A DNA stretch of 64,000 bases from a virus. A program made the translations under genes and the position numbers. Below, in pieces: positions 7,291 to 63,877 of the stretch. Position 1 is the stretch's first letter. Every line of letters starts with the position of its first letter. The stretch covers positions 35,986-99,985 of IMG/VR virus record IMGVR_UViG_3300045988_173642; one strand, written 5' to 3'. The notes beneath the pieces are model-generated. The model ran no database searches and was not told where the DNA came from. It saw nothing but the letters and a program-made list of their open reading frames with translations.

Positions 7291-7863
7291 CTACTCTCCT
7301 GCCTTTTCCTCTGCTTTTTCATCCATCATCTTTTCATCCTTGGCTGATTCATTCTTTTGGTTTTCGTCTTCTTTATTGCCCTCTATCAGTTCTTTCAACT
7401 TCATATTGAAATGACGTTCCGTCTTATCTGCCACGATTTTCTGCATCACTCGCGCCCATGCCGCCCCGTTGCAAGTGCTCTCGTTTTCGAGGATGGAAAC
7501 AAACTGTACGGCGCAATAAACGGCAGCGAGGTAGTTGGCAAGGTGCAGCTTGTCCATATAGCCAAACAAGCCATCGTCAATGGCCGTTGCCAAAAAGATG
7601 GCCATTATAAGCACGGAGAAGTCCTGCACCATTTTGGCCATTTTCTTCGACCTCAGTTTGCCATCCATTTTACATTTTGGATTTTTCTTGATTTGCTCTC
7701 GGAAGCGGGAATAGATGCGACGGTTGCAGCGCCATGCCGTGTAGCAATCGAGTACGAGGGCGAAGAAGCACACGGCAATGAAATTAAAACTCGGTTCGAT
7801 GTAGCACCACACCACACTGATGATGCTGGCCACTACGCGGGCAAGGGAAAAGGTTGTGTTCAT
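7291..7863 (-). CDS. holin-like membrane protein
   Basis: 190 aa with about four hydrophobic helices (VVASIISVVWCYI, FIAVCFFALVLDCY, FSVLIMAIFLATAI, LAAVYCAVQFVSILENES). The SILEN segment and the acidic C-terminal tail resemble the holin 4_1-type family. Confidence 0.5.
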   Translation of the reverse strand: MNTTFSLARVVASIISVVWCYIEPSFNFIAVCFFALVLDCYTAWRCNRRIYSRFREQIKKNPKCKMDGKLRSKKMAKMVQDFSVLIMAIFLATAIDDGLFGYMDKLHLANYLAAVYCAVQFVSILENESTCNGAAWARVMQKIVADKTERHFNMKLKELIEGNKEDENQKNESAKDEKMMDEKAEEKAGE

Positions 7864-7961
7864 ATTTTTTTATGTTTTTGTGTTTGACAAAGCAAAAATA
7901 GGGAACAAGCATGAGATATATCGGACATCCATCCATTGCCGCAATGTCCTGACGGTGCAAG

Positions 7962-40386: not shown

Positions 40387-40815
40387 TCATCTCCTTGCAG
40401 ACTCCTGCATCATTCCCACCATAACAATTTTTTTTGGGACGGAGAGATGACGGCCGGCAGAGGCGGGGGCGGCACACACGGCTGCTCCGTAGTATATCAG
40501 AATGCGGGTAAGGTAATCGAGGGAGGAGCACCAAACGGGCAGTGGGGCGGCGTGGGAAACCGAGAGTGCGGCATTCACAGACATAAAATCGGCATCGGCG
40601 GGGATGGCGTCGCGGTCCGCGGTGGGCGCGTTGTGGGCTAACCAATCGCGTACATTTTCGCGTAGACTGGCGGGCGCATTGTATCGCACGCCCAAAATGG
40701 AAAAAGTTTTTCCGTTTTTTCTGCCGTCGGCAATATCAACCAGCGCCAGTCCTTCTGCGGGTGCTTCGTCGTCCTGTGCGGCGTCCATGTCGATGGTGAT
40801 AACTGTATTTTCCAT
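40387..40815 (-). CDS. hypothetical protein
   Basis: 142 aa. The N-terminal 25 aa include a 60-bp segment identical to part of 43057..44727. The GC-rich 3' half is open in other frames too, so the extent is uncertain. Confidence 0.45.
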   Translation of the reverse strand: MENTVITIDMDAAQDDEAPAEGLALVDIADGRKNGKTFSILGVRYNAPASLRENVRDWLAHNAPTADRDAIPADADFMSVNAALSVSHAAPLPVWCSSLDYLTRILIYYGAAVCAAPASAGRHLSVPKKIVMVGMMQESARR

Positions 40816-43056: not shown

Positions 43057-44727
43057 TTACACCCCGAACCACTCGCGCAAGCATGCCACGGCCTCTGGTG
43101 CGCTGGCCTGCCACTGCTGTTCTGCCTTGTTCCAGGTCGCGCCGTGCGCCTTGATGGCCTTGCGGTTGCGGTAGGTCGTTCGCCCATCGCCTACCACCGC
43201 CACGCCGTCGGCAATATCAACCAGCGCCAGTCCTTCTGCGGGTGCTTCGTCGTCCTGTGCGGCATCCTGAACGGCTGCGGCTGTATCGGTGCGCTCGTCC
43301 AACGTTGGGCTGGCTGGCGCCGTTGTTGGCGTGTAGCTGCGAAGGGTCCATACGTGACGGGCAATACTATCGGCTGTTGCAGTTGAGCTGTGAAAGAATA
43401 AAGGGCGCATATTGACGCCAAGGGCGTCGGCAAGGGCGTCCACCTCTTGCAACGAATAGCTATAATAGCCATTCTGCCCATATTCATTTTTAACATTCGC
43501 GGCCGGCACAACGGAGAGTACTTCAGCCAATATCTCATTGCGTGCTTCATCCGACATTTTCCGCTTGATTGCAATATCTCCAGCGTTGTTGCCCATAGTT
43601 TTGCGGGCAAAATCGACGAACTCAGAATAAAATACATCTGTCGAATCGTCCCAACCGTTGAACGTGTCGCGACGGCTGCAGAACAGATCTAAATCCGTTT
43701 TTTCCGAAAATTCTTCTTCGGTCGGTCCGTCGGTCCAAGTTACCTCGAAATCAGCGCCCCAGCCGCGGCGCACAGATACGGAGAACTTGACGCCGGGGAA
43801 AGCCGCGGTGCACATCGCCAAAATATTTGCCTTTCGCGCGTTGTCAATCTTTCGCGCCGTGGTCTTACCGTCCTTCTCCAGTTCTTCAACGTTGCGCATG
43901 AGGTGAGACCATCTGGCGCAGCGTTCGCGGTATTCGGCGAGGCGTGCCGCCTTCGCTTCGGCTTCCTGGCGTTCCTCTTCCGCTTTTCTGGCTTCTTCGG
44001 CCGCCTTAACGGCTGCCAATTCGTCGGCGAATAAGACAGGCCACACGATTGGTAGATATATATAGCGGGCATAATCATAGCCCTCAGAATCAATGAGGAA
44101 GTACTTGCCAGACGGTGAAACGACAAGCGCACCGACGGTGTAGAATGTGGCCCAGTCTTCTTCGTTGTACGTACCAGTAGAGGCATCGTCGGACACATCT
44201 TCAGAACGACTGAAACCGCGCAAGGTGTAGCGGGCCACAAGTTCATCCGCCAATTCTGGACGTTGGAAATATTCTTCCGTTACATTGATTATTCGTTCTA
44301 CGCAACAGAGTCGGGCAGGCTGCTCTCCTGCCTTGGTGTAGTAGGTGAGGTTATGCAGTTCCTCGAATAAGCCGCGTCCGCCGTCGCATTTGAGGCCGCT
44401 ATTGTCGGCCCAAAAGAAGCCGCCGACGGCGGGAATACCTTCGAGGCGGTCGGCCTCTTTAGCATGCTCTGCATACTTGGTGCGCTGGCGTGCGGCCTCT
44501 TTGTTTGCGATAAGCTCGCGAGCAGCGACTTCGGCTGCCTCTGTCGTGGCCTTGCCGAATGTCTTCACGTACGCCGGGCGTGAGATAGGCGACATAGGGC
44601 CGCACCAACCACACAAGCAAATATATTGTTCGTTATCGCTGTAATACTGTGCACGTTGAGCCTTGTCTTTTAAAACCTTAGATAAGTTCTCGGCAATCAC
44701 GTTAAGGGGTACATTCTTTGTAGTCAT
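43057..44727 (-). CDS. multidomain hypothetical protein (resembles polyvalent plasmid/ICE/phage proteins)
   Basis: 556 aa with a central coiled coil (AAVKAAEEARKAEEERQEAEAKAARLAEYRE). FPGVKFSVSVRRGWGADFEVTWTDGPTEEE and the C-terminal KAHGATWNKAEQQWQ block recall domains of polyvalent proteins; this is from memory and needs an HMM search. Confidence 0.4.
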   Translation of the reverse strand: MTTKNVPLNVIAENLSKVLKDKAQRAQYYSDNEQYICLCGWCGPMSPISRPAYVKTFGKATTEAAEVAARELIANKEAARQRTKYAEHAKEADRLEGIPAVGGFFWADNSGLKCDGGRGLFEELHNLTYYTKAGEQPARLCCVERIINVTEEYFQRPELADELVARYTLRGFSRSEDVSDDASTGTYNEEDWATFYTVGALVVSPSGKYFLIDSEGYDYARYIYLPIVWPVLFADELAAVKAAEEARKAEEERQEAEAKAARLAEYRERCARWSHLMRNVEELEKDGKTTARKIDNARKANILAMCTAAFPGVKFSVSVRRGWGADFEVTWTDGPTEEEFSEKTDLDLFCSRRDTFNGWDDSTDVFYSEFVDFARKTMGNNAGDIAIKRKMSDEARNEILAEVLSVVPAANVKNEYGQNGYYSYSLQEVDALADALGVNMRPLFFHSSTATADSIARHVWTLRSYTPTTAPASPTLDERTDTAAAVQDAAQDDEAPAEGLALVDIADGVAVVGDGRTTYRNRKAIKAHGATWNKAEQQWQASAPEAVACLREWFGV

Positions 44728-53200: not shown

Positions 53201-53737
53201 CGTGAGGTCTTTGAGGAACGTCAAAGTTTGGTCGAAAACATCATAGCGATACCAGTCTGTTTCTGCTGGCCCCGCGTTGATGGCTTCATCCGAAGAAAGG
53301 TAGCCCGACACGATGCGCTGCCGCCAGACGCGCTTCTCTGTGCCGTTTTCGCCAGAGGAGGAGAGAATGCCTTGCAGGAAGATATAGTAATACTCCTCTG
53401 AGCCTATTTGCTGCTCTTCGGCGTTCCGTCCGTAGATGTCAATTTCCTCAGAGGGGAACACGATGTTAGCAGCGTTGCCAACGGATTCTGTGCGCGGAAT
53501 GGCGGCATAGACATATTTTTCTGTGTGTGTGTTGAACACTGTCGGAGAGGCTTGCAGTCGCCAGCGGCGGTAATTATGCCCGGCATCATAGTCGATGATG
53601 CCTTTGACGTACACAAGAATTTGCGCATTACCGACACACGAGGCCTGCACGTAGTCGGGCATGGCCAGGGCGTTGCGTTCGATGAAGAGCGCGTCGGGCG
53701 AAATCCAATAATCTGTGGTCGTTGCTTTCGTTGTCAT
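50210..53737 (-). CDS. tail fibre protein with a short collagen-like segment (1175 aa)
   Basis: Gly-X-Y run GEDGQNGAKGDTGAPGAPGPRGYTG (51326-51400) in a large beta-rich ORF in the fibre module. The upstream 99-aa ORF overlaps it by 4 nt. Confidence 0.6.
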   Translation of the reverse strand: MTTKATTTDYWISPDALFIERNALAMPDYVQASCVGNAQILVYVKGIIDYDAGHNYRRWRLQASPTVFNTHTEKYVYAAIPRTESVGNAANIVFPSEEIDIYGRNAEEQQIGSEEYYYIFLQGILSSSGENGTEKRVWRQRIVSGYLSSDEAINAGPAETDWYRYDVFDQTLTFLKDLTMKAGTVFRDLFVSTLKIVSGGRITFEGQQGEITGIGDADTPLDDATKIVTPKLMDDNALSKRHDDETPFNLAMHDLKVNGAADIFGNTVIHGDALVEGALTVGTPEKRRPTTLHGDLTVGTFNKGVEGAKVDFYGNAEFEGIVARSFLEVPELRFNRTTITVGNKWQTQGGGIIQQVWTGADEALSALGFTSLEGVVQLKLETGEVGAVAVNDKCQGVFHFTNRRNDLSTSDPHDGNFHFAGFTTIYFRVKEIYTPATLPAPIKEQTAADGTPALNQFFRYELRAATCADLPAEDRNRWTDESHPQPAMHFACYANETDSTRQRSCLTTTTYQLHLAGMTNWTYTQDNMQLIIGWLNGFTMLQRVWDKEKKEFVEALKELEGEGIATGNIYMWGMVDQFDRVPSIVTQQLYFLSTPAVEILPDGIRVAEDHLSYVKGEWQTEPLTPSPSNRVVWQQWLYTYSDGTYGVSNVAFHAADPTALTVVLNKNIISVAISDWYDTAAPDDISFDITAQVFSGTQPLDVRSGKATYGTGDATTPVELTYTAVVAADGKSLTYHVTLKGFVGVEVDGATPEDAFMTFTLVTDYGTATATATIAQNREGEDGQNGAKGDTGAPGAPGPRGYTGVTVRRGEWEAGVLYRNDSGDTTAPDGNRYLDEVSVTDLKSGTPKWYLARPSHNGILSESANKPFGTGNDFWEPINDLRPLRTSFADIMTAFIQFLQVSQIQITDENGTPYGAFGGGTDMEYPLWFGGATPADAVMRVNRQGDIWSGNKFSVINGNMRIDGNDSHVEVHDGVVEMFGSLAFPNIKVGVDADGCAILEFYSKDGQKMYNLGPNGLDKITTTAAYFPISRLKIISVNNAYDVWLAVAYIGNPDALPYYQFFPKQTKTDTAVVYWYGGTSSNTPPEQLGLYYQNAQLAQDLPTGELIPDGWYAAVNNGVHPTDTTIITPDMGTTPDYVAYFERLYHFTSGRQDKTGKLTWKQKDDGASYDFQLQI

Positions 53738-54033
53738 GAATGCTTGGAGATTTTAAGAATGAGACGCGAAAACGGCACCATCATGAGATAGGCCCAAGAA
53801 AGGCGGCTGGGATATTGAAGATCGGCATCCGCCGTGTGTGAGCGCAAGATGTGAAGGCGATAGAGCGCGTTGTGGGCCAGCCATTCCGCTTTCAGCGAGC
53901 GCAGACTGCGCTTCCAAACATTAGAATTAGGAAAGAGCGAGCGCACGTAACGCAATTTGTTGTCCATTTCCGCTTCGCTGTACTTATAGGATTGATGAAT
54001 GTGGAGATTGTTGTCAGTGATGGTGTAAATCAT
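53734..54033 (-). CDS. hypothetical protein
   Basis: 99-aa ORF, translationally coupled (ATGA) to the fibre gene. Confidence 0.55.
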   Translation of the reverse strand: MIYTITDNNLHIHQSYKYSEAEMDNKLRYVRSLFPNSNVWKRSLRSLKAEWLAHNALYRLHILRSHTADADLQYPSRLSWAYLMMVPFSRLILKISKHS

Positions 54034-54053: not shown

Positions 54054-54104
54054 GATAAAAAAACGTTCTACTTTTGTCTGTTGTCAGAACAAAGGTAGAA
54101 CGTT
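54054..54104 (-). terminator. rho-independent terminator closing the DGR accessory operon
   Basis: Stem aaacgttctac (54061-54071) pairs with gtagaacgttt (54095-54105), abutting the stop at 54105. On the minus strand it is followed by a T7 run. Confidence 0.65.
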
Positions 54105-54626
54105 TTAAGGTTTTTCATCGGACATTCCCATGTGTCGCGACAAAGAAAGGTGGTGCTGGAGGATGCGGATGTTATGGCGCAAATCGTCGAGCGTGGCGTG
54201 CTCTACGTCAATCATTGACACCAACACACAAACGTCATGCTCCGCTTCGGTGCGTGAATGATGGGCGTCTTGAGCGGGCGTGGGGGAAGGAGGAGAGGGG
54301 AGTGGTTGCACTGATGTTCCAGTCTGTTCCGCCAGTTCTTCCGACAACGCAAGCACATAATGTTTACCAGAATCATCCGTGCTGATTTCCACTTCCGGAT
54401 GCGCCTTCTTCAATCGTCGCAAAACGCCATCAATGGCGGAGCAGGGGATGCCAAGCTGATGAACAGTGTGTCCAGCAAGCGGAACGGCGCGGATGCGGTA
54501 GCCTGTGATGTTCTGCATGAACGCAGCGCAGGCGTTGAAAGCATGGAAAAACAATCCTTGCTGAATGAGATAGAGCCTGCGGCCATCCGTCTGTTCCTGC
54601 TCCGCAATGGCTTCAGCCACTTTCAT
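54105..54626 (-). CDS. MutS-domain-I-like small protein (candidate DGR accessory factor, MSL-type)
   Basis: RRLYLIQQGLFFHAFNACAAFMQNITGYRIRAVPLAGHTVHQLGIPCSAIDGVLRRL parallels E. coli MutS [32 protein letters not shown]...PMAGIPYHAVENYLAKL. The mismatch-binding F-x-E is FFH here. It overlaps the upstream ORF by 4 nt. Confidence 0.4.
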   Translation of the reverse strand: MKVAEAIAEQEQTDGRRLYLIQQGLFFHAFNACAAFMQNITGYRIRAVPLAGHTVHQLGIPCSAIDGVLRRLKKAHPEVEISTDDSGKHYVLALSEELAEQTGTSVQPLPSPPSPTPAQDAHHSRTEAEHDVCVLVSMIDVEHATLDDLRHNIRILQHHLSLSRHMGMSDEKP

Positions 54627-55081
54627 GCCTCTTCTATCTTGAAGGCCGGTTTGGCCAATGCCTTGCAGCGTTCGGCAAAGGCTGTCACTTGCTCCAGGTC
54701 GGTTGTGTCACCAAGCAATGCCTTGCGGTGAGCGCACAACTCTTCTGCATAAGAATATCGAGCGCCAATGAGATAAGCGGCCAAGGTATGATAATCTGAG
54801 ATGCGGTACACGGCCACAAGTTCTTTGATGAATGCCGCGTCAAGACTGTCAAATAAGCCCTGCTGATAAATGGTCTGCAGCAATGTCTGTGCCGTCATTC
54901 GTCCTTCATGCGAAATGGCCAGTGTGGTGCAACGAACGCGCTGCTCTCCTGCATCATTCTTATAAGATGAAGGGGAGAGGTTGATGGTCAAGAACTCCGT
55001 GTTCTTGGAATAAGAGCGAACGATGTGGCGGGGATTTTCCGTCAAATCTTCGCATTGGCGAAGGGGAATTTTTTCTCTCAT
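54623..55081 (-). CDS. hypothetical protein in the DGR operon
   Basis: 152-aa ORF, coupled by 4-nt overlaps to the RT upstream and the MutS-like ORF downstream. Confidence 0.6.
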   Translation of the reverse strand: MREKIPLRQCEDLTENPRHIVRSYSKNTEFLTINLSPSSYKNDAGEQRVRCTTLAISHEGRMTAQTLLQTIYQQGLFDSLDAAFIKELVAVYRISDYHTLAAYLIGARYSYAEELCAHRKALLGDTTDLEQVTAFAERCKALAKPAFKIEEA

Positions 55082-56553
55082 AAAATAGATGTTTGAATCA
55101 TTTTACATTTGTTTCGCAAACGAATCCGCTCAAAATGGCCATGAATGTAAAAGAACTCGTAGAAGACATGTTCAAAAATAGATAGTGTCGTTTTACGTAA
55201 GAGGTAAGACCTTTTATTCTTGAAAAAACCGAGGTACGAGTTGATGACTTGTTCCATGCGACGAAGGTCGCACAAGGATATAATGGATTTTTCGCGCAAC
55301 ATTTGGTTGAATCCAAAAACGCGCTCACGGAAACGAGCAACGGTGCGGCTGGACAGGTATATACGATAGTAACGGATGTAGGCTCCAACAAACATAACAC
55401 CATGTGAAGCTAATTGAAAATGATATTTGGTGACGTGAAGCGTAATACCAAGTTCAGACGACAGAAACAAGCGAGCGTCAATGATGAAGGCTTTTAAAGC
55501 AGACTTGCTGATGCAAATGACAACAAAATCATCTACAAAACGCGTGTAGTAGACCTCAAATCCACGGAGTTTGAACCATTGAATTACGAAATCATCAAAG
55601 AATGACATAAGGAAATTCACGAACACTTGCGTTGTGATATTCCCAATTGGCATTCCGAAGGCAACATCGCTGCCGAAAAGCGACTTATGGCGCTCAATAT
55701 GCTTGTGCCATTCATCTGGCGATGTGTTGAACACACAATTTTGCTCGGGACAATGAAACACGATGGTTTTGGATGCGGCGAACAATTGTTTCAAGTATTG
55801 GCCTTTGTATTGTTCGCGGATGAACGGTTCCAGTTTTGACCATAATATACGCTTGTCTATCGACATGAAGAACGAGACGATGTCGCCCTTAAACACCCAT
55901 GCAGGGCGGCTATAATTGCAAGTTGCCTTCTTGATGTTGTCATATACGGCCTTCTGAGCCGCAAGGGTGCCAAATCCTTTTCGGCAATTGAATGACACAT
56001 TACCTTGTTCAATAAAACGCCGCTCAAAATACGGATTGAGAAAAAGAATAATGAAATGATGAACGATGCGATCGCGAAAGCAAGCCGCAAAAACCTCTCT
56101 ATATTTCGGGTATTTCACAAGGAAACACGTGCTGACGCCTGGCTTATATGCTCCAGTATATAATTCATGTGCCAATGCTGGCAAATCATGTTCGGCTATC
56201 TCGCAATAGTCGATACATGCACGGCTGGTGCGTTTACGCTGGCAACAATCGTCAAAAGCAAAAAGCACAAGATCAAGAAAGTCGGTAGGAATATCAAAAG
56301 CGACGACAGGACGAACCACAAACCCGTTGTACTTATTGTTGTTGTTGATGTTGCCATTGCCGAAGTTGCTGTTCCAACTGTTGTTGCGGTTATACTCCGT
56401 GGCGCTCCATCGGTTGGCCTGAACGTTTACTTTGGGCATTGAAATAGCATAACCACTCCAGACATTTTCATACGAACCATTGCCGTATGAACATAAATCT
56501 AAATAGGTATGCCCACCTTTTAACAGTCCTCTCGGCTCTCTGTCACAATTCAT
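55078..56553 (-). CDS. DGR-type reverse transcriptase
   Basis: Motifs FRDRIVHH, VSFNCRKGFGT, GDIVSFFMSID, GMPIGNITTQVFVNFLMSFFDD (the DGR hallmark I/LGNxxSQ region) and YTRFVDDFVVI (YxDD). The ATG-started ORF runs through the TR; the RT body begins near residue 90. No ATG lies between the TR and the RT body, but an in-frame GTG is at 56268. Confidence 0.9.
   Translation of the reverse strand: MNCDREPRGLLKGGHTYLDLCSYGNGSYENVWSGYAISMPKVNVQANRWSATEYNRNNSWNSNFGNGNINNNNKYNGFVVRPVVAFDIPTDFLDLVLFAFDDCCQRKRTSRACIDYCEIAEHDLPALAHELYTGAYKPGVSTCFLVKYPKYREVFAACFRDRIVHHFIILFLNPYFERRFIEQGNVSFNCRKGFGTLAAQKAVYDNIKKATCNYSRPAWVFKGDIVSFFMSIDKRILWSKLEPFIREQYKGQYLKQLFAASKTIVFHCPEQNCVFNTSPDEWHKHIERHKSLFGSDVAFGMPIGNITTQVFVNFLMSFFDDFVIQWFKLRGFEVYYTRFVDDFVVICISKSALKAFIIDARLFLSSELGITLHVTKYHFQLASHGVMFVGAYIRYYRIYLSSRTVARFRERVFGFNQMLREKSIISLCDLRRMEQVINSYLGFFKNKRSYLLRKTTLSIFEHVFYEFFYIHGHFERIRLRNKCKMIQTSIL
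56296..56422 (-). repeat. DGR template repeat (TR), 127 bp
   Basis: Matches 57194-57320 at 114 of 127 positions. All 13 mismatches are plus-strand T in the TR, which is A on the coding strand. Read in frame it is rich in AAY codons (NRNNSWNSNFGNGNINNNNKYNG). Confidence 0.93.
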
Positions 56554-56577
56554 AAGACAAGTGATTTAAATGATTAT

Positions 56578-57039
56578 TTAAGCACTTACAGAATTACTAC
56601 CTTGCGAAAATCTGACCAGAGAAGATGCGCGCCATGCTGAAACCTGTAAGGAACAGGAAGCGACGAGCGACTTAATCTTCTTAAAATCATCATTACTGAT
56701 GCAGCCCAATGTCTTCATGATGCAAATAATAGATTTAATAGCATCTATATGAGCTGCAGCAATAGTCAGCTGCGGCACTCGTGAATACATATCAGCAAAT
56801 GCAATAGACAAACTCACCAATAAACCCGCGCATTCTGAATACATCGGATTGACCACAGGACGATATTTGACTGGACACGTCTTGTTGATTTGCGCCAAGA
56901 CGAGATACAATTGCTGAGAATCGCGAAACACCTGCTGCTGATGGATGGTCCGAACTTTCTCTTTCTTGAGCTTTTTACTTCTTTCTTTTTGTTCTGTTGT
57001 TATTTGTATATATTGTGGTTCTTTGTTGTCATTTACCAT
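56578..57039 (-). CDS. avd: accessory variability determinant (Avd)-like four-helix-bundle protein
   Basis: 153 aa between the target and the TR, with a basic N-terminus (KERSKKLKKEK). The helical body with FRDSQQLYLVLAQINKTCPVKYR...LSIAFADMYSR...IDAIKSIICIMKTLGCISNDDF fits the Avd / four-helix-bundle family pattern. Confidence 0.6.
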   Translation of the reverse strand: MVNDNKEPQYIQITTEQKERSKKLKKEKVRTIHQQQVFRDSQQLYLVLAQINKTCPVKYRPVVNPMYSECAGLLVSLSIAFADMYSRVPQLTIAAAHIDAIKSIICIMKTLGCISNDDFKKIKSLVASCSLQVSAWRASSLVRFSQGSNSVSA

Positions 57040-57073
57040 ACAATTTCCAATTTTATAATTAAATTGTTCACCG

Positions 57074-57081
57074 CAAAGTTA
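57074..57081 (-). promoter_or_regulatory. Bacteroidota promoter for avd-TR-RT (-7 TAACTTTG on the minus strand; -33 at 57102-57105)
   Basis: Plus strand caaagtta with a 20-nt spacer to CAAA; 35 nt upstream of the avd ATG. Confidence 0.6.
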
Positions 57082-57114
57082 ATAACAATTTTTGATATAA
57101 ACAAAAATAATTCA

Positions 57115-57171
57115 GCCGGCTTACGCCGGCAATGGCATTTTCGTTGAGCGACGCGCTAAAAAGCGCGTCGC
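57115..57171 (-). terminator. two GC-rich hairpins immediately downstream of the VR and target stop
   Basis: gcgacgcgc-taaaaa-gcgcgtcgc (57148-57171) has a 9-bp stem and lies 7 nt after the stop. gccggc-ttac-gccggc (57115-57130) has a GUAA loop on the minus strand and is followed there by a T-rich run. Confidence 0.6.
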
Positions 57172-57178
57172 AAAAAGG

Positions 57179-60100
57179 TTAAAGGATGAAGGGAAAAGCG
57201 ACGACAGGACGAACCACAAACCCGCTGTACTTATAGCTGTTGTAGACGTTGCCATCGCCGAAGTAGCTGCGCCAACTGTAGTAGCGGTCATACTCCGTGG
57301 CGCTCCATCGGTGGGCCTGACGAGGATTGCGCACCGGACAGCCCAGATTGGCGTCTTTCGCGCGTTTCTGCAAGTTTGCATAGAAAGGGCGGCGAGCATC
57401 CGTCGGCTCATGCGGTCGCAGTTCGTTGCCTTCGTCGGAAAAATCCGCCGTTGGCGTACCAGTGTCAGATGGCGTCAGCGCACGGCTATTGCGGAAGAAA
57501 ATATACAGACGGAACATATCACCGCTGCCATGCAGATACCATTTCCCTTTTTCAAACCACGGCGAAAGGCCGTCAATGGGCTTGCCGCCATTGCTCGGCT
57601 CGAACAGGGAACAAGCGTAGGCGGCAGGATAGGCTAACTGACGCCATCGTTTGTCGCCGCCGATATTTCCAAGCGCCACGCAGAGATCGGCCAGCTCTTC
57701 CATCGTTTCTGGAATGATATGGTCGCGTACTGCGGGAAGGTAGTCGAAGATGGTGTGACCATCGCTATCTGTCAACAGTCCTTCCCCGACATATTGTGTC
57801 AGAATACGATTGGCATGTGCCACGATTGAGGCGGTGTCCTTTTTGCCATCCCATCTGTTGGGCGCAGTATTACCTTCATAGACCTTGAATCCGTCACTTT
57901 CGTTATCATCATAAGCCTGCAAGTCTTTGATGTAATACGTTTTTTCGCCTTTTTCGTCCACCATACCAACATCTGTACAATCATTACAAGCGGGGATATT
58001 CGTCAAATCGTCATCAGAGACGGATAATGCTTCAGCAATCACCTTGCGTTCGTCGGGTGTAAATCCCAATTCACCAGTGCCTTGCGGATAAATACCCCAT
58101 GAAAACTCACTGATGGAGTTAGCCTTATCTGAGGACGTAATGGTCAGTTCTTCCACGTTTTCGATCAACACTTCATACAGTGTTTTGCCCGAATTATATT
58201 GCGCCGAGATTTCTTCATCCTGCAAATATTCGTTCAAAAGATTCGTTGGTAGGTCGGCATAAGGCGTCACCTTATATACCCAGCCAATAACCTTTTTACC
58301 CGGATATAACACGGAATCAAACTCACCATTATAGTAAGCGAAATCGCCTAATTTCGGAATGCGGTTGAAAAGTTTCAACACCACTGATGTGCTAAGCGAT
58401 TTTCCTCCAATCAAGGTAGCTGTAACAGTCAACGTCGCAGTTGGGTTATTACTTTCCTCGCCGACCGATGGCGCATGCAACACGCCAGTCTCTGCATCCA
58501 CCGTCACATTAAAATCATTCTCAGAGATAGACCACCTTAAATCCGTGAAGTTGTTGGCCATCGTTGGCAACACGGAACATTGGTAAGGATAATCTCCTGG
58601 TTCGGCAATAACAAAGCGTTGCGTAATGATATTCAAGCCTGTCACGCTGCGCAAAGAATAAGTGATATACAAATCATTATTCTCAGAGTCGATTTCGCCG
58701 AACTTGCGCAACAAGGCGAGTTTCAATTCTGCATCCACATTCTGCCCTTCTGTCACGGCAATTCGTCCATACAAAGAGCAATATAGAATCCCAGTTATAT
58801 AGAATAATACGCTTGGCGCAACATCTGTCCAATCAATTCCATCTATGCGCAACGTGCTCAACTTTGCGCCAGCCTCACTACATCCACGCACCAAAGAGCG
58901 CGTGTCAAAACCGCAATTGAGGGCGGTGATCGAAGTTAAACGAGCGTAGCCATCCAGCGTGAGCGTCTGTAACTGCGGCATATCGCGCACTTCAAGTTGT
59001 GAGAGCTCCGCACCGAAGCGAGCCACGGTAAGTTGTGGTGAGGACGGCATACGCACCTGCCCGTATTTCGTTCCGCGAAGGTCGAGTGTTTGCAGTCGTG
59101 AAGCCTTAGAGAGGTTGAATGTTCCGCTGGATGTGCTAACACCATTCAGAGACAGACGCTGCAAATTGGCGGCATCTACATCTATCTGCTTCGGCGCAAA
59201 CGCACTGCTACCTGCTTTAGGCTCAGCAATAAACTCCGTCATTCGGCGTCCCTGAATGGTGAAGTTATTATTGCCAACCACCATGTTACCCACGTTACCG
59301 ATGGAACGATAATAGTTAGTGGCAGCAAGTCCGACTGATGAGTCGCCAGGAATCGGTGTGGAAGCAGGATTTACTGTGAAGGCATAGTGTCGCCCCGGTA
59401 TCATGCGGAAATGCGGGTTGATGAGCGCACGGTCGCGCACGCCACAGGGATAGAGGTACTGATGAGGAACAAGGTCAAATGTGTATTCGCCTCCCGTGCG
59501 CCCAGAACCAGGCGTGAACTGCAAACCAGCGCTGGCGTCCACCAATCCAGTAGAACCAGTGTTCACACCACTTGAGAAGTCACCCCATGCCGCATACGAA
59601 CAGACAAGAGCCAGTCGGCGTGTCATATACTGAATCTCGCTCTCCAACTGGTCGCCAATGCCCTGCGTGACGGCGAGAATACCACGCGCCTGGTTGCCGT
59701 AACTCTCATAGCCCCACGATGCGGGCCAGTCGTATCGGATGCGCTGCTGTTCCGCCCATGCTACCTCGGCAAAGTACTTTTGAACTGAGAAGAAATACTT
59801 GTGTATACAACCGTATGGCGTTTGGCGTTGTGTCGTTGTAAGGCCGTCTATATTCTCATTCGCCCCAACCAACGTACACATGGCCGTCAACACTTCACGC
59901 ATATTGGCCGGCAATGCCGTTTGGTCGAGCGTTTCCCATGCCGCCTCCATGACATTGAACAAAGCCGATGCCGTGCCTTCATAGTCCTTCTGCTTTTTCA
60001 GTCCGTCCTTCGTGTCTTGAACGTCGAAATAACGAGAAAGGAAATACACCTTTGTCTGTCGTCCGTTGTTGTCAGTCTTAAAGATGGTATCAAGGTCATC

Positions 60101-63100
60101 TTGATAGAGCCAGCTCAAGCCTGTAGTTATATCAATGGTATAATACGTGTTCTTCGAACAATTGTCGGTACCAGCAATCATGAAGTTCACAAGATTATAA
60201 TGTACTTGATGATTCTTCTTGTTGAGATACTTTCCGCAGTGCTCGTTGAACGATGCTGCGATAGCCATTTGGAAACGAGTGTTCAACTTAGCATAGTCGC
60301 CTACATCCTCACTCTGCTTCCACTCCTCGTAGGTGGCTTTCGTGATGGCATCCGTGGCGAGATTACGAACGCCAGCCTTATATCCGTCGGAATCCGTCCA
60401 AGTTCCTGCATCAACGAATTTACCAGTGACATAGTTGAAACGCAGCAGATGAAAAGCTTCGTCACCATCGCGCAACCAATATTTCGTGGTCTGCATCTCG
60501 TCGAGCAATTGCGTATCGGCATCCGTTGCTCCAACGGCCGTGGCTCTGTCATATACGTTGGCATAATGCGCGTCAAACGCGGCGCGGTCGCCACGGAAAT
60601 ACTTCATACGCACATCGTGGGCATATATGAAGTTGCAGTAACGACGGAACAAAGCATCGTTCTTTGCCACAGGCGTTCCGTCATCGTTTGTCTTACCCAA
60701 CGAATACTCAAACGACTTGATGCCGTTATACACCCATGATTCATCATCCACGTTATACGTCACATCCTCGTCGGCCGGTACGCGAAAGTCACACAAAGGC
60801 AAGTTGTTATTCAAACCTTCAAAAGCAAACATTTTGCTCTTGTCGTAGCCCCACGTAGCCTTGTCACACTTGCCTGAACCAAATGTACCGAAGCCGACGA
60901 ACACTGGTTCCTTCTCGCCTTCTGGCTGGTTGAAGAAATAGTAATTGTCTTCATACACCGCAAAACGCGCACCCGTTTTGTTTGCAAACCAATCCGGCAG
61001 TTCGTCCTTGCATACAGTCTTCATCACATCGTTGTACAACCGCGTTGCGCCCATCTTGTGCGACTGCATCGGCGAAGCATAATTAATTTTATTGACGAGC
61101 TTCGTTGCCTTTGGACCACCGATCACAGGTGTATAGAACTGGCCGTGGTACATACCATTACCGTCAATCCAACCATCCAACACGTCAATCTGAAGGCGTT
61201 CTTTCTCCAGATCGCTCAATGTGCTGACAGCATCGCCCTGAATCTGGTTGCCGTCAAGATACAATGGGTTAGCCGCCGCCACCTCTTCTGTGAAGTTAGA
61301 CATAGAAGCCTTCCATCCGAAATCTTTGTGAAGTGTGGAGAATAGAATCACAATGCGATACGTCACCTTGTCCAGCTTCGTCTGCTCGTTGTTCCACCAA
61401 TACGTGTTGGCCGTACTTCCTTGCGCCGTGTTCATCAAACACTTCTTGCCGCCGAGCGTTCCCGATACATAAGCCAGATAAGCCGCCTTGCCGATAGTTC
61501 CAGACAATTCCGGAATATATTTCCCATTGTTGTCGTAATAGTCAATTCGCCAATAGCAAGCATAGCCAACCTTCTTGTCCTGGTTCATTTTATAGTTGTC
61601 TGTCCCGACGAGTGTCAGACAACGTTTGCCCTTCTCCTTCACCTTTCGGTAAGAGATACGTCCATTTCCGTCCAAGATGTCGTTGCGCTGACGGATGGCA
61701 TTCTTTGTCTCGGCGTCGGGGCGTGTGGCTGTGAAATTCTGAAGCACGTTTTGCGCGGACAACGTCACGCCACGGTAACAACGAATGGTGTAGATGTCGA
61801 GGTCGCATGAAGGATGGCCAAAGCGGATGCCGCCGTGTCCTTCGCCCTGAATCCATACGCCGTTGGTGTCCACGCTATATTGAACGGCACGCTGCGGTTT
61901 GCCGTTGACATATACCTTCACGGTGGGGCGGTTAGACGGCGTTTTATTGGGTGTCTGCCATTTAAATTCATCACTGCCCTTAGCCACAAGCGCTGGTGTG
62001 AGCGTCACAACGAGATGCACGCGTTTATCCTCCTCAAAAGCGAAATCTTGGTCATCCTCGTTCTGCTTTTCCTGCGCCCAGACCGCGCCAGTGAGCGGTT
62101 TGATGATGATGCCCAATTTCTCCAACGTGCTTTCGATGGTCTGAGAGATACTAATGACAGGGTCATCCTCTGCCGTAATGTTGCGCACGGCAAACTCCAT
62201 CTCCAACGACATGGCCGCAGATGGGTTTGTTTTAAACGCTTCAAATGGTTCGTAACCGATGGTCAGCGTGCGTCCGCTCGGAATGCGGAGCACCTTCACG
62301 CCATCATCATCCTGCATCCAGGCATCGCCAGTTCCGGAGAAACCATTCCAAACCGAAGGCACTTCCTCCTGCGTCTGCTTGTTGATGATGGTTTGATAGT
62401 GCGTCTCAGTGTTGTTGCGCACCTTTGGGTCAAGGTAGAAATGCGCACCCGCAACGGGCGAATAGTCGTTCTTGTTATCCACCGTGAACACCACAAAGCG
62501 ATTGCCTTGGCTCTCACGCAAGAAGTTTACAATCTCTTCGCCATTGTAACGAAACACACGCAAGTAAGCCTGATAAGACGCCGGACTCTCGCCCGTAGAT
62601 GAATTTTCAATTTCGATGGTAGTGTCAATCGGGTAACGCTCACCAACCACGGCTTTCTGTTCCGACACGAAATAAGAAGCCGTATAATCCAAATCGCCGT
62701 CGCCAGCGTTCGTGATACGGATGCTGACGGGCAGAGGGTCTGTGGCGGGCAGGGTAGGGGCTTCCGCGCTCTGAGGCACCCACACCGCAAAGTAGGAAAT
62801 GACCGTGCGCACATAGTTCTCCACCACGCTCTGCACGCCCTGTAACATGAGATAAGGCTGCGCCAGTTGCGACGGGTTTGCCGTTGCCTCGTTCACCACC
62901 ATAAATCGGTTGACCTGCACCTCTGACGACAATTCACCGCCCATGCCATCGTCACACGTCACCCATGCCGTCACGGTATGCACGCCATGCGACAATAATC
63001 CATAAGCCGTAATCTCCTGCTGCGTCCACGAATAAGGATTAGCTTCCGGCCGCTGCTCATCAGCCAGAAACGTCTTAGGCTCCATCGTCCATGTGCCAGA

Positions 63101-63877
63101 CGCACCCGTCATCGTGACGTGCAATTTCTTGTCAACGGCCCCCATCACGGAGAATGAAAACGGGAATCCTCCGTCTGAGGCAAGGATGCGTTTCGACCAG
63201 TCTGTCAGGTTTTTGACCGTTAGGTTGACGGCATTGATGGAGTAGATAAGGTCACCAAAAAACTCACGCTGCACGCCGTTTTCATCCTCATAATAAGAAG
63301 TCACTCTGATGCGCACATTCTGACGCCCCTCTGTGAGATATTTTCCGACATCCACACTCACTGGATAGGATGCTGCGCTCTCCGCGTCATAGTTTTCCTC
63401 TTGAGAAACTATATTAGTCTGCACGTAATGGTTTTGCCAGGTGTCAGAACCTTCCTTTTTGATGTCAACGCGCAACGTTCCTGGCACATCGCGATAGTTC
63501 ACGCGGTCGCCAAGCTGCGTAATCTTCAGTGCCATGTAGCGTACGTTGACGGTCAAGGCATCGCCCACCTTCACGTTTCGGTCGCCTTTGAGGTCAGAAG
63601 CCAAACGGATGGCATAGCTATCGCTTTCCACCATCTGATTAAACGACACTAAACCATTTGCGTCTGGCTCATAAGTGATATTATTAAACTGAACAGCCTT
63701 AACGCTTTTTTTCGCGTCTTGTTGCAGTTCTTGTATAGGCGTTACAATTTTCTGCACGAAATCCTCTGCCGTCAAATATTCATTCGTCGGCAAGCCTGCC
63801 GAGTCAATTTCTTCTCGTGCTTCTTCGTTGTTGGTCTTACGAAGTAAGTCGTTGATATTGGTAAAATCCTGTGCCAT
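57179..63877 (-). CDS. giant tail fibre / receptor-binding protein, DGR target (2232 aa)
   Basis: The C-terminal 42 codons form the VR, inside a DUF1566/C-type-lectin-like end (GKWYLHGSGDMF ... RWSATEY...FVVRPVVAF). Upstream are Big_2-like and LRR-like (LQRLSLNG..LQTLDLRG..LQTLTLDG) segments and a CotH-like stretch (AGTDNCSKNTYYTIDITTGLSWLYQDDLDTIF). Confidence 0.8.
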   Translation of the reverse strand: MAQDFTNINDLLRKTNNEEAREEIDSAGLPTNEYLTAEDFVQKIVTPIQELQQDAKKSVKAVQFNNITYEPDANGLVSFNQMVESDSYAIRLASDLKGDRNVKVGDALTVNVRYMALKITQLGDRVNYRDVPGTLRVDIKKEGSDTWQNHYVQTNIVSQEENYDAESAASYPVSVDVGKYLTEGRQNVRIRVTSYYEDENGVQREFFGDLIYSINAVNLTVKNLTDWSKRILASDGGFPFSFSVMGAVDKKLHVTMTGASGTWTMEPKTFLADEQRPEANPYSWTQQEITAYGLLSHGVHTVTAWVTCDDGMGGELSSEVQVNRFMVVNEATANPSQLAQPYLMLQGVQSVVENYVRTVISYFAVWVPQSAEAPTLPATDPLPVSIRITNAGDGDLDYTASYFVSEQKAVVGERYPIDTTIEIENSSTGESPASYQAYLRVFRYNGEEIVNFLRESQGNRFVVFTVDNKNDYSPVAGAHFYLDPKVRNNTETHYQTIINKQTQEEVPSVWNGFSGTGDAWMQDDDGVKVLRIPSGRTLTIGYEPFEAFKTNPSAAMSLEMEFAVRNITAEDDPVISISQTIESTLEKLGIIIKPLTGAVWAQEKQNEDDQDFAFEEDKRVHLVVTLTPALVAKGSDEFKWQTPNKTPSNRPTVKVYVNGKPQRAVQYSVDTNGVWIQGEGHGGIRFGHPSCDLDIYTIRCYRGVTLSAQNVLQNFTATRPDAETKNAIRQRNDILDGNGRISYRKVKEKGKRCLTLVGTDNYKMNQDKKVGYACYWRIDYYDNNGKYIPELSGTIGKAAYLAYVSGTLGGKKCLMNTAQGSTANTYWWNNEQTKLDKVTYRIVILFSTLHKDFGWKASMSNFTEEVAAANPLYLDGNQIQGDAVSTLSDLEKERLQIDVLDGWIDGNGMYHGQFYTPVIGGPKATKLVNKINYASPMQSHKMGATRLYNDVMKTVCKDELPDWFANKTGARFAVYEDNYYFFNQPEGEKEPVFVGFGTFGSGKCDKATWGYDKSKMFAFEGLNNNLPLCDFRVPADEDVTYNVDDESWVYNGIKSFEYSLGKTNDDGTPVAKNDALFRRYCNFIYAHDVRMKYFRGDRAAFDAHYANVYDRATAVGATDADTQLLDEMQTTKYWLRDGDEAFHLLRFNYVTGKFVDAGTWTDSDGYKAGVRNLATDAITKATYEEWKQSEDVGDYAKLNTRFQMAIAASFNEHCGKYLNKKNHQVHYNLVNFMIAGTDNCSKNTYYTIDITTGLSWLYQDDLDTIFKTDNNGRQTKVYFLSRYFDVQDTKDGLKKQKDYEGTASALFNVMEAAWETLDQTALPANMREVLTAMCTLVGANENIDGLTTTQRQTPYGCIHKYFFSVQKYFAEVAWAEQQRIRYDWPASWGYESYGNQARGILAVTQGIGDQLESEIQYMTRRLALVCSYAAWGDFSSGVNTGSTGLVDASAGLQFTPGSGRTGGEYTFDLVPHQYLYPCGVRDRALINPHFRMIPGRHYAFTVNPASTPIPGDSSVGLAATNYYRSIGNVGNMVVGNNNFTIQGRRMTEFIAEPKAGSSAFAPKQIDVDAANLQRLSLNGVSTSSGTFNLSKASRLQTLDLRGTKYGQVRMPSSPQLTVARFGAELSQLEVRDMPQLQTLTLDGYARLTSITALNCGFDTRSLVRGCSEAGAKLSTLRIDGIDWTDVAPSVLFYITGILYCSLYGRIAVTEGQNVDAELKLALLRKFGEIDSENNDLYITYSLRSVTGLNIITQRFVIAEPGDYPYQCSVLPTMANNFTDLRWSISENDFNVTVDAETGVLHAPSVGEESNNPTATLTVTATLIGGKSLSTSVVLKLFNRIPKLGDFAYYNGEFDSVLYPGKKVIGWVYKVTPYADLPTNLLNEYLQDEEISAQYNSGKTLYEVLIENVEELTITSSDKANSISEFSWGIYPQGTGELGFTPDERKVIAEALSVSDDDLTNIPACNDCTDVGMVDEKGEKTYYIKDLQAYDDNESDGFKVYEGNTAPNRWDGKKDTASIVAHANRILTQYVGEGLLTDSDGHTIFDYLPAVRDHIIPETMEELADLCVALGNIGGDKRWRQLAYPAAYACSLFEPSNGGKPIDGLSPWFEKGKWYLHGSGDMFRLYIFFRNSRALTPSDTGTPTADFSDEGNELRPHEPTDARRPFYANLQKRAKDANLGCPVRNPRQAHRWSATEYDRYYSWRSYFGDGNVYNSYKYSGFVVRPVVAFPFIL
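57194..57320 (-). repeat. DGR variable repeat (VR), 127 bp
   Basis: Counterpart of the TR, ending 12 nt before the target stop codon. The last 31 nt (coding direction) are identical to the TR and contain no A (an IMH-like G/C/T stretch: gggtttgtggttcgtcctgtcgtcgctttt). Confidence 0.93.

Follow-up and report, generated by a model that had tools for sequence, protein, structure and literature searches.

In this study, we analyzed a 64,000-nt stretch of viral DNA (hereafter the window) and identified what is almost certainly a complete and functional diversity-generating retroelement (DGR), which would diversify a giant protein at its C-terminal tip in an uncultured phage of gut Bacteroidales with a genome of roughly 93-102 kb. 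All parts that a preliminary description of this DNA had named were recovered on the minus strand where it had placed them, and its central claim, a complete and intact DGR acting on the C-terminal tip of a protein, was supported in every test run. The element is a clean but fairly ordinary case of a well-known system with a few new accessory details, and it leaves the current understanding of DGRs and their function unchanged. Possibly novel are the family of a 152-aa ORF and an RNA stem-loop that shows covariation and directly precedes the template repeat.

Organization of the DGR cassette

The features of the cassette are as follows:

57179-63877, minus strand: DGR target gene, 2232 aa (from the ORF list)
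57194-57320, minus strand: variable repeat (VR) of 42 codons; 4 codons separate it from the stop
57194-57223, minus strand: A-free, G+C-rich, IMH-like 3' end of the VR, read from the sequence
57171-57148, minus strand: hairpin 1, GCGACGCGCT-TTTT-AGCGCGTCGC, from folding
57130-57105, minus strand: hairpin 2, GCCGGC-GTAA-GCCGGC plus a T-run, from folding
57105-57074, minus strand: promoter consensus TTTG-N20-TAACTTTG; the ATG of avd follows 35 nt past its end
56578-57039, minus strand: Avd-like accessory ORF, 153 aa, between the target and TR/RT
55078-56553, minus strand: reverse transcriptase (RT) ORF, 491 aa counted from the first ATG
56433-56515, minus strand: conserved RNA stem-loop directly 5' of the TR, in the 5' extension of the RT ORF
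56296-56422, minus strand: template repeat (TR), 127 nt, 38 adenines, 13 AAY codons
54623-55081, minus strand: ORF152, 4-nt overlap with the upstream RT
54105-54626, minus strand: ORF173, MutS-domain-I-like (MSL), 4-nt overlap with the upstream ORF152
~54104-54055, minus strand: terminator-like hairpin and U-run closing the cassette, z-score -5.2

All ORFs of the cassette are intact, and its order is preserved in more than 10 related loci that kept the RT. Three relatives (L024-L026) have lost it entirely, and the cassette is therefore dispensable. Enrichment of the promoter motif, together with matches in Bacteroidales and Paludibacteraceae MAGs, points to a host within Bacteroidales.

Adenine-specific transfer from TR to VR

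The TR and VR form the sole long direct repeat within 52-64 kb of the window (127 nt, 90% identical). They differ at 13 of 127 positions, all confined to codon positions 1 or 2, and each of the 13 is a TR-A to VR-N change; the chance of every mismatch landing on the 38 adenines of the TR is P ~3e-8. Both copies share an identical 30-nt A-free 3' end, past which similarity stops abruptly. The repeat alignment bore out the proposed location of the VR in the last 42 codons of the 2232-aa ORF, and the VR is followed by PFIL and the stop codon and nothing else. The TR was likewise present where it had been reported, though not as an intergenic element separating avd from RT: it sits within the ATG-initiated RT ORF, in frame with it and in the same reading frame as the VR.

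In five close relatives retrieved from metagenomes, 66 of 67 TR/VR differences were on TR adenines. VR variation affected 26 of the 35 columns that are always A, compared with 1 of 78 invariant non-A columns, and every non-A polymorphic cell of the TR was mirrored in the cognate VR (57/57), while the TR itself stays A-rich and conserved across relatives. The same pattern extends to more distant relatives, with 10/10, 11/11, 9/9 and 5/5 mismatches at A; differences were 100% adenine-only in L005, L017, L022 and the phage BS-TP1, and adenine-specific mismatches were found in six independent TR/VR pairs. The lone non-adenine mismatch among the 67 lies in L001, at the repeat edge.

At the protein level, those codons of the VR whose template has an A in position 1 or 2 had a mean entropy of 1.87 bits across 18 homologous C-termini, compared with 0.53 bits for the other VR codons and 0.57 bits for the upstream 110 residues, giving the tip a pattern of scaffold and hypervariable positions. 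Each VR has evolved in concert with its own TR. Because the mismatches are tied to adenines and the VRs copy the polymorphisms of their cognate TRs across relatives, the transfer from TR to VR has been ongoing, and this comparative evidence supports unidirectional mutagenic retrohoming.

Hairpins, promoter and RNA structure

Two hairpins past the VR had been noted and both were located, the region folding with a z-score of -6.8. Hairpin 1 lies 22 nt past the VR, at the position of the target-recognition hairpin/cruciform of BPP-1, and has a 10-bp G+C-rich stem and a TTTT loop without a trailing U-run. It is kept in seven lineages, with double-sided compensatory changes at two pairs (6 cells), and 0 of 500 shuffles reached the observed level of covariation. 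A comparable hairpin also trails the VR of a distant DGR (L027). The GC-rich IMH-like element at the VR 3' end and the hairpin downstream of it would represent the homing signals. Hairpin 2 with its T-rich tail is likely the intrinsic terminator of the target gene.

The promoter proposed upstream of the Avd-like ORF was found as well. Its motif, which we take to be the Bacteroides -33/-7 promoter consensus, is enriched across the window, with 10 occurrences against 1.55 expected (0 of 100 shuffles reach 10). A hairpin with a U-run was also identified at the cassette end, where a terminator had been predicted.

The stem-loop directly 5' of the TR was absent from the parts listed in the preliminary description. 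RNAalifold predicted 17 pairs with a 12-nt conserved internal loop, and the single-sequence MFE gave an identical fold. Compensatory changes were present at 12 of the 17 pairs and 94% of cells pair, compared with 24-47% in slid controls; again, 0 of 500 shuffles reached the observed level. Both the post-VR hairpin and the pre-TR stem-loop are under structural selection.

ORF152 and ORF173

Two further coupled ORFs had been described past the RT, and the 4-nt overlaps agree with this. ORF152 is a candidate for an extra DGR accessory protein, translationally coupled to the RT. It had no match in Pfam, PHROG or NCBIfam; its AF2 model (pLDDT 92.8) had no Foldseek match in PDB and weak ones only in BFVD. 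Homologues are located directly 3' of the RT in RT-bearing relatives. In the distant DGR of L027, whose target is short (497 aa), the RT is followed by a protein with an ORF152-related C-terminal helical domain (hhalign probability 94.7%).

ORF173 (173 aa, pI 6.0; AF2 model of poor quality) had been called MutS-like, which is supported at the family level and not for the window protein alone, whose match to Pfam MutS_I has an E-value of 0.14. In its family, 27 of 41 members match MutS_I (best 9e-7), and the family profile has its top PDB match in domain I of Taq MutS, over residues 30-92 (E 0.004), where GDFYE and GlFYHAY are aligned.

ORF152 and the MSL protein may both act in the DGR, for example by handling the mismatched cDNA:VR heteroduplex. 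It is somewhat unlikely that ORF152, and possibly ORF173 too, are instead unrelated phage genes (e.g. fibre-assembly factors) that lie by chance between the RT and the fibre gene that comes next. ORF152 lacks a recognisable nucleic-acid-related domain and all but one of its contexts belong to one phage clade in which synteny is conserved; however, it overlaps or abuts the RT stop upstream of the cassette terminator, is sandwiched between the RT and a member of a published DGR accessory class (MSL), and its C-terminal helical domain recurs after the RT of a different DGR, that of L027. ORF173 is dispensable because many relatives have the DGR but no ORF173 (L006, L008, L017, L020-22), and BS-TP1 carries a DUF4376 protein in this slot instead, whereas a distant member of its family lies directly 3' of an RVT_1 gene in an unrelated contig, which argues for a role in the DGR.

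The target protein

Phage DGR targets are classically receptor-binding tail proteins, as in the case of Mtd of BPP-1. The target identified here is probably a giant multidomain, tail-associated virion protein with the VR at its C-terminus. It matches PHROG 24896 (function unknown, E 1.7e-54) and is homologous over its full length to gp27, the DGR target of BS-TP1 (26% identity, E 3e-134). Its last 200 aa have a sub-threshold match to Pfam Lcl_C/DUF1566 (E 0.0024), from which the tip may adopt a C-type-lectin fold.

The preliminary description had called this protein a fibre. The 2232-aa target with a C-terminal VR is as described, but its identity as a fibre comes from context, and no fibre or RBP family matched it in the Pfam, PHROG and NCBIfam searches. 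We consider it unlikely, though still plausible, that the diversified protein is another surface-exposed virion protein, such as a glycan or mucus adhesin, in which case the DGR would tune something besides host range. Such a role would be compatible with the lack of fibre or RBP matches, with the unannotated genes that flank the target in relatives, and with the absence of most of the protein from L024-L026, because of which it is possibly not essential for infection. Against it, the neighbour of the target is a collagen-repeat protein of 1175 aa that weakly matches tail-fibre PHROGs; the BS-TP1 homologue is near gp20, a gene with a structural annotation match (Baseplate_J), and the authors of that study describe their DGR targets as tail-related (PMC12694917). 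The target is probably a receptor-binding tail protein.

Activity of the element

The activity of this DGR is visible on an evolutionary scale only, through the comparison of related phages, and not in this individual genome. The TR and VR of L006 are identical (128/128), and diversification is therefore not continuous in every lineage. This identity, as well as the loss of the cassette in L024-L026, might be expected if the cassette were a decayed and inactive relic whose TR/VR differences are fossils, but we regard this as very improbable: its ORFs are all intact and under purifying selection (pN/pS 0.08-0.11 for the RT), and the catalytic and DGR signature motifs of the RT are present. Moreover, in genomes with 94-98% identical RTs the VR allele is different in each and tracks its own TR at 57 of 57 non-A polymorphic cells, a pattern that requires recent and repeated homing.

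RT and Avd-like protein

The preliminary description had staked its reading in part on the grouping of the RT, and our searches place it with DGR RTs and not with group II intron or retron RTs. The ORF matches Pfam RVT_1 (3.5e-12) and PHROG 1423 (8.5e-60), and its top PDB match is bRT of BPP-1 (8ub7, E 5e-18), while the same PDB search returned no group II intron or retron RT at <= 1e-3. Equivalents of R74 and I181 of bRT are kept and the catalytic motif FVDD is present; all five RT motifs quoted previously were found in the translation. The motif IGNITTQ fits, with a conservative S to T change, the signature [I/V/L]GxxxSQ that DGR RTs have in place of QGxxxSP (PMC7826257). In a tblastn search against a phage collection, the best matches were phage-encoded RT genes led by those of Bacteroides phages, including BS-TP1 (43%, best), F2, F4 and Bacuni_F1, and Bordetella phage records matched too. 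The conserved RT core begins directly past the TR, with no ATG between them.

It is barely credible that the RT belongs to a group II intron, a retron or a defence system and that the repeat of 127 nt is an ordinary diverged duplication: although its top-scoring NCBIfam model is a group II intron RT (E 7e-17) and comparable RTs are often labelled 'retron-type' by GenBank annotators, it scores 61.6 bits against a 300-bit cut-off for that model (TIGR04416), the closest RT in PDB is the DGR bRT, and ordinary divergence is unable to confine 66 of 67 changes to adenines in just one of the copies. Two specific candidates were rejected. A group II intron RT/maturase has a score far under the cut-off and the wrong motif (IGxxxTQ, not QGxxxSP, in the window), and a retron or Drt RT has NCBIfam scores far under the cut-offs (retron St85, 31 bits versus 235; Drt3a, 34 versus 200; Drt4, 22 versus 450); for both, no Rfam group II intron or retron RNA was found in the window.

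The Avd-like ORF reported between the target and the RT is present, and its Avd-family matches are sub-threshold but consistent. The protein is basic (pI 9.56) and matches PHROG 3206, 'Avd protein of DGR' (E 1.4e-4). All six homologues match Pfam bAvd, each under the gathering score (best 1.1e-3), and four of the six match the PHROG Avd family (best 2.3e-6), while hhalign against Avd of BPP-1 was not significant (E 0.8).

Proposed mechanism and implications

By analogy with BPP-1, we infer an RNP mechanism for this DGR. A Bacteroides-type promoter would drive an operon of avd, RT, ORF152 and MSL, in which the TR is nested in the 5' part of the RT gene. On the transcript, the structured element would precede the TR, and the RT-coding sequence past the TR would play the part of a spacer. 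A complex of RT and Avd may bind this RNA, and the RT would copy the TR into cDNA with misincorporation opposite adenines only. The cDNA would then take the place of the VR where the gene of the 2232-aa target ends, presumably guided by the A-free GC-rich 3' end common to both repeats and by the hairpin downstream of the VR. The outcome would be variation at 23 codons (13 AAY) of a DUF1566/Lcl_C-type ligand-binding tip, with at least about 1e15 possible peptide variants.

To our knowledge, the DGR RNP model has so far been based almost entirely on BPP-1. It is possible, and we suggest it tentatively, that the retrohoming machine of this lineage differs: TR and stem-loop would double as RT coding sequence and DGR RNA, the RT being translated from the ATG upstream of the TR, and ORF152 would be a dedicated accessory protein acting with or instead of MSL. 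As part of the same tentative proposal, ORF152 would represent a previously undescribed family, whose confidently predicted fold matches no solved structure. The ORF152 family, the covarying pre-TR stem-loop and the RT frame running through the TR are leads that could refine the RNP model.

For annotation, this element is a textbook-quality positive, as the DGR was recognisable from raw sequence by a first-pass reader. The comparative evidence for an ongoing transfer from TR to VR is unusually clean and comes from an uncultured gut phage clade with genomes of about 95 kb, whose closest isolate, BS-TP1, was published only in 2025.

Comparison with known systems

The prototype, the DGR of Bordetella phage BPP-1 (mtd-avd-TR-brt), and the window DGR both have, in the same order and on one strand, a target with a C-terminal VR, an avd or Avd-like gene, TR and RT. 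They also have in common adenine-only TR/VR differences, an AAY-rich TR, a homing end that is GC-rich and free of A, and, just past the VR, a GC-rich hairpin. Among solved RTs, that of BPP-1 (8ub7) is closest to the window RT, which keeps the R74 and I181 equivalents and a motif of the [I/V/L]GxxxSQ type. On the other hand, the target is 2232 aa compared with 381 aa in BPP-1, the VR is of the DUF1566/Lcl_C type (by a sub-threshold match) and not of the Mtd type, the RT ORF contains the TR, which in BPP-1 has a 140-nt non-coding spacer context, FVDD stands in place of YMDD as the catalytic motif, and the promoter is Bacteroides-type. The window also has the covarying stem-loop 5' of the TR and two extra coupled ORFs past the RT.

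The layout had been said to go beyond the textbook. This is true with respect to BPP-1, but MSL accessories, TR/RT overlap and targets of ~2000 aa have all been published: MSL (MutS-like) proteins of 112-283 aa constitute architecture D (Wu et al., 2018; PMC5758913), a TR overlapping the RT ORF defines DiGReF group 3 (PMC3521204), and targets of ~2000 aa were reported in Bacteroides temperate phages in 2025 (PMC12694917).

BS-TP1 (PQ571274; Gut Microbes 2025, PMC12694917) carries a giant target that is homologous to that of the window from end to end (gp27, 2187 aa; 26% identity), and an RT ORF (~490 aa, 43% identical) that encloses the TR as in the window; its Avd/four-helix-bundle gene overlaps the RT ORF, and both phages have a Bacteroidales host. 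Its backbone is distantly related to that of the window phage, with no match at the nucleotide level. BS-TP1 has no ORF152 or MSL homologue, and its RT is followed by the DUF4376 protein.

MSL DGRs, as matched by description, resemble the window in having a small neutral protein past the RT, MutS-domain-I-like at the family level in the window, as well as an avd or Avd-like gene. ORF173 falls inside the published size range, and its pI and co-occurrence with the Avd-like ORF also agree with the description. Architecture D covers Legionella-type DGRs with DUF1566/CLec2 VRs (PMC5758913), and the window VR resembles DUF1566/Lcl_C, as in category 'd' of Wu et al. (2018; PMC5758913). Unlike these DGRs, the window inserts the conserved ORF152 between RT and MSL.

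Organization of the cassette

The element at 54054-63877 is almost certainly a genuine and complete DGR that has been active on an evolutionary timescale. This interpretation had been put forward in a preliminary description of the sequence, and our analyses support it overall; all of the ORFs, hairpins, promoter and terminator named there were found on the minus strand. ORF positions are from the ORF list and the terminator was located by folding:

57179-63877, minus strand: 2232-aa target ORF
57171-57148, minus strand: hairpin 1, with a 10-bp G+C-rich stem and a TTTT loop, after the VR
57130-57105, minus strand: hairpin 2 with a T-rich tail, downstream of hairpin 1
57105-57074, minus strand: promoter pattern TTTG-N20-TAACTTTG, ending 35 nt ahead of the 153-aa ORF
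56578-57039, minus strand: 153-aa Avd-like ORF
55078-56553, minus strand: 491-aa RT ORF
56515-56433, minus strand: RNA stem-loop within the RT ORF, adjoining the TR on its 5' side (RNAalifold; alignment A9 columns 79-164)
54623-55081, minus strand: ORF152 (152 aa)
54105-54626, minus strand: ORF173 (173 aa)
~54104-54055, minus strand: long hairpin and U-run closing the cassette

The RT ORF, ORF152 and ORF173 are linked in a chain by 4-nt start/stop overlaps, and the two post-VR hairpins taken together have a fold z-score of -6.8. The TTTG-N20-TAACTTTG consensus is that of the Bacteroides -33/-7 promoter. Over the whole window and both strands, TTTG-N18-22-TAnnTTTG occurred 10 times against 1.55 expected, an enrichment that fits a Bacteroidota host. 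Other candidate promoters of this type lie, for example, at 26536, 33876, 37996, 44766, 47690, 48251, 49587 and 50004. Loci related to the cassette were found in Bacteroidales and Paludibacteraceae MAGs, which, together with the promoter enrichment, supports Bacteroidota as the probable host. Neither Rfam families nor tRNAs were detected in the window.

Adenine-specific differences between TR and VR

The TR (56296-56422) and the VR (57194-57320) form a 127-nt direct repeat of 90% identity, the sole long direct repeat in the 52-64 kb region. As previously described, the VR occupies the last codons of the 2232-aa ORF (42 codons, followed by just PFIL and the stop codon). The TR was likewise present as listed in the preliminary description, but not at the separate position between avd and RT given there: it lies within the RT ORF, which opens with an ATG, and is read in the frame of the VR. 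At all 13 differing positions the TR, which is the downstream copy, has A and the VR, at the end of the large ORF, has G, T or C; every difference falls on codon position 1 or 2, and 10 of the 12 affected codons are AAC/AAT. The chance that 13 random differences would all land on the 38 TR adenines is ~3e-8. No second VR was found in the window.

Elsewhere in the window, a 64-nt direct repeat, mismatched at one position and not adenine-related, was observed at 40723-40786 and 43204-43267, 2.5 kb apart. Its copies are inside two minus-strand ORFs (40387-40815 and 43057-44727) and probably encode a peptide module common to both.

For comparison, we collected close relatives whose RTs were 94-98% identical, drawn from an ENA assembly, from IMG/VR (two genomes, 93 and 98 kb) and from a metagenome (one contig, 102 kb), and added further, more distant ones. 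Every relative, close or distant, had its own TR/VR pair; scanning of metagenome contigs for additional VR alleles yielded one extra locus only. The expectation that variation should track TR adenines was borne out in these assembled genomes: in the five close genomes, TR adenines accounted for 66 of 67 TR/VR differences, the sole exception being in the first column, which is outside the repeat in L001, one of the related loci. The VR was variable at 26 of 35 columns in which the TR is always A, compared with 1 of 78 invariant non-A TR columns. Moreover, 14 columns differed among the TRs themselves, and there all non-A TR bases (57/57) were matched in the cognate VR. In distant relatives, mismatches were also at adenines (10/10, 11/11, 9/9 and 5/5). 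When 18 homologous C-termini were aligned, mean entropy was 1.87 bits in VR codons templated by A at position 1 or 2, versus 0.53 bits in the remaining VR codons and 0.57 bits in the upstream 110 residues. At the level of sequence comparison, the pattern in the close genomes is the signature left by repeated copying in one direction, from TR to VR, with errors specific to adenines.

One relative (L006; GCA_963637645.1, contig CAVHPB010000034.1) has an otherwise intact cassette in which VR (3912-4039) and TR (4787-4914) are identical over 128/128 positions. Recent non-mutagenic homing, a reset VR or assembly collapse are possible causes.

With regard to homing, TR and VR end in an identical, adenine-free stretch of 30 nt, beyond which similarity ends abruptly. 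Hairpin 1 is kept in seven lineages with a 9-bp core, and two of the hairpin's pairs carry compensatory changes on both sides (A-T replaced by G-C or C-G, and C-G by G-C or T-A); these changes comprise 6 cells, a value reached by 0 of 500 shuffles. A comparable GC-rich hairpin is present downstream of the VR in a distant DGR, that of locus L027. The BPP-1 DGR has a target hairpin/cruciform after its VR, in the same position as hairpin 1. Hairpin 1 is a candidate homing signal that may act as DNA or as RNA.

Reverse transcriptase

The RT matched Pfam RVT_1 and PHROG 1423 (8.5e-60). When all PDB sequences were searched, its closest relative was BPP-1 bRT (8ub7, E 5e-18), and the only further match was a Cas6-RT-Cas1 (7e-4). 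The alternative that it belongs to a group II intron or retron found no support: no such RT appeared among PDB sequences at 1e-3, and with NCBIfam's group II intron RT, retron St85, Drt3a and Drt4 models the protein scored far under every cut-off. DGR RTs have the signature [I/V/L]GxxxSQ, as opposed to QGxxxSP in introns and retroviruses, and both Arg74 and Ile181 of bRT promote adenine mutagenesis (PMC7826257). The window RT has IGNITTQ, the DGR signature with an S to T change, and conserves the equivalents of both residues in the alignment to 8ub7. Its earlier assignment to the DGR type is supported by the bRT relationship, this motif and the low scores of the group II/retron models.

By tblastn, the RT matched 53 of 50,697 deposited phage records. 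The top match was the isolated Bacteroides phage BS-TP1 (43%). Next came two human-fecal records that lack annotation, titled 'Bacteriophage sp.', and Bacteroides phages F2, F4 and Bacuni_F1; the matches also included records of Bordetella phages. Megablast of the cassette against the same records matched nothing.

RT extension and stem-loop upstream of the TR

In the window and in its relatives alike, no ATG occurs on the way from the TR to the RT core. A conserved ATG, placed just past avd or overlapping it, opens the RT ORF in 13 of 13 related loci, and the frame is open through the TR; read-through was observed in L005, L006, L008, L017, L020-23 and BS-TP1 (L010 8692-10173), and in BS-TP1 the annotated RT CDS also encloses the TR. 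Five distinct extension lengths were found, all of which keep the frame. For the 44 pre-TR codons, pN/pS was 0.31 in frame versus 1.72 and 0.44 out of frame, and that of the RT core was 0.08-0.11. Considering the five frame-keeping lengths and the in-frame value, translation of the RT extension through the TR remains likely.

It could be supposed that this extension is conserved for its peptide. This is weakened by the identity of its conserved blocks at third codon positions too and by a covarying RNA helix. The stem-loop directly 5' of the TR comprises 17 pairs, 12 of which have compensatory double changes across 10 loci, with 94% of cells paired; 0 of 500 shuffles equalled it, and slid controls paired 24-47%. 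Folding of the window sequence alone gave the same structure, for which no Rfam family was found. Most lineages have TACGAAGATGCA as the 12-nt internal loop; the clade of the window has TATGCTATTTCA. Based on the third-position identity and the covariation, we take the pre-TR segment to be a structured portion of the DGR RNA; it is probably translated as well.

Candidate accessory proteins

The product of the 153-aa ORF is basic (pI 9.56) and matches the PHROG 'Avd protein of DGR' (1.4e-4). All six aligned homologues matched Pfam bAvd, each under the gathering score, and four of the six matched the Avd PHROG (best E 2.3e-6); hhalign of the family against BPP-1 Avd was not significant. On this combined evidence (the sub-threshold Pfam matches, the PHROG matches and the pI), we accept the earlier designation of the protein as Avd-like.

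The MutS-like ORF of the preliminary description stands as a family-level match: 27 of 41 members of the ORF173 family individually match Pfam MutS_I (best E 9e-7), but the window protein by itself gives E=0.14, and the link is visible only with the 41-member family profile. A profile of eight close homologues gave noise only against PDB sequences, and the AF2 model from the same eight (pLDDT 38) was unusable for fold search. An exhaustive profile search yielded 43 representative clusters of nearly all small proteins. The top PDB match of the family profile was Taq MutS domain I (residues 30-92, E 0.004), in which the mismatch-binding GDFYE aligns with GlFYHAY of the family, with Phe kept and Glu replaced by His. 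A distant member is directly 3' of an RVT_1 gene on an unrelated contig. Many members (alignment A4) also have a C-terminal motif, approximately D/N-L-x-x-x-(S/T)-P-(M/L)-(D/E)-A-(M/I)-N-F-(I/V)-x-x-L-(Q/K), which is degenerate in the window protein and resembles the helix-turn-helix at the very C-terminal end of MutS domain V. MSL proteins are an accessory class of DGR architecture D, small, neutral and found alongside avd (Wu et al., 2018; PMC5758913), and on its family-level evidence ORF173 is probably a member of this class.

ORF152 had no family match in Pfam, PHROG or NCBIfam. Its AF2 model, which is confident (pLDDT 92.8), shows a four-stranded sheet and a five-helix bundle; Foldseek returned no PDB match at E of 1e-3 or better (TM about 0.2) and, in BFVD, marginal matches only, to uncharacterised phage proteins. 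ORF152 homologues are always immediately 3' of the RT, also in relatives without MSL, and the C-terminal helical domain recurs (hhalign probability 94.7%) in the protein after the RT of another DGR, whose target has 497 aa. Homologues of ORF152 and ORF173 were absent from the 50,697 phage records (tblastn). A relationship between ORF152 and BS-TP1 gp24 (DUF4376) was rejected, as hhalign found none.

Three IMG/VR contigs of 49-94 kb (L024, L025 and L026) have the cassette deleted at about 7300-8300 of each locus. They lack Avd, RT, MSL and ORF99 and retain broken target N-terminal fragments and a truncated ORF152 homologue, with the next fibre gene directly after. We rejected these loci as showing that ORF152 is an independent fibre-linked gene, because they are deletion scars with target pseudogene fragments.

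Target protein and its neighbourhood

The 2232-aa target had no Pfam, NCBIfam or PDB-sequence match; full-length homology (26% identity, E 3e-134) links it to gp27 of BS-TP1, the DGR target of this isolated Bacteroides salyersiae phage (PMC12694917). Multidomain, 'tail-related' DGR targets some 2000 aa long are reported for Bacteroidaceae temperate phages in the same study (PMC12694917). Downstream of the cassette are a 99-aa ORF and then a collagen-repeat protein of 1175 aa, for which tail-fibre PHROGs gave weak matches; the tape-measure gene is about 44 kb away in the window, and PHROG comparison was uninformative for the genes that precede the target in relatives. Given the collagen-repeat neighbour and the 'tail-related' targets of Bacteroidaceae phages, it is a reasonable inference, rather than a result, that the target is a receptor-binding fibre.

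The 99-aa ORF (53734-54033, minus strand), past the cassette terminator, encodes a basic protein (pI 9.9) with no family match and has a 4-nt overlap with the beginning of the collagen-repeat fibre gene. Most relatives keep this ORF; it is missing in L022, another related locus, and in the deletion variants.

Comparison with known DGRs

The departures from the textbook layout noted in the preliminary description, a MutS-like accessory and a giant target, are real but already published, and a TR overlapping the RT ORF was catalogued earlier as DiGReF group 3 (PMC3521204). Three features may be new: the ORF152 family, a candidate for an accessory factor; the stem-loop that covaries on the 5' side of the TR; and an RT that is apparently translated through the TR. 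It is conceivable that this lineage has its own variant of the DGR ribonucleoprotein, although we hold this view tentatively. The target tip resembles, with a match below threshold, the Lcl_C/DUF1566 VR type, CLec2 'category d' of Wu et al. In BPP-1, RT-Avd is enveloped by RNA from both sides of the TR, and the conserved elements listed for that system do not include a stem-loop 5' of the TR (bioRxiv 10.1101/2023.10.23.563531), whereas the DGR described here has one.
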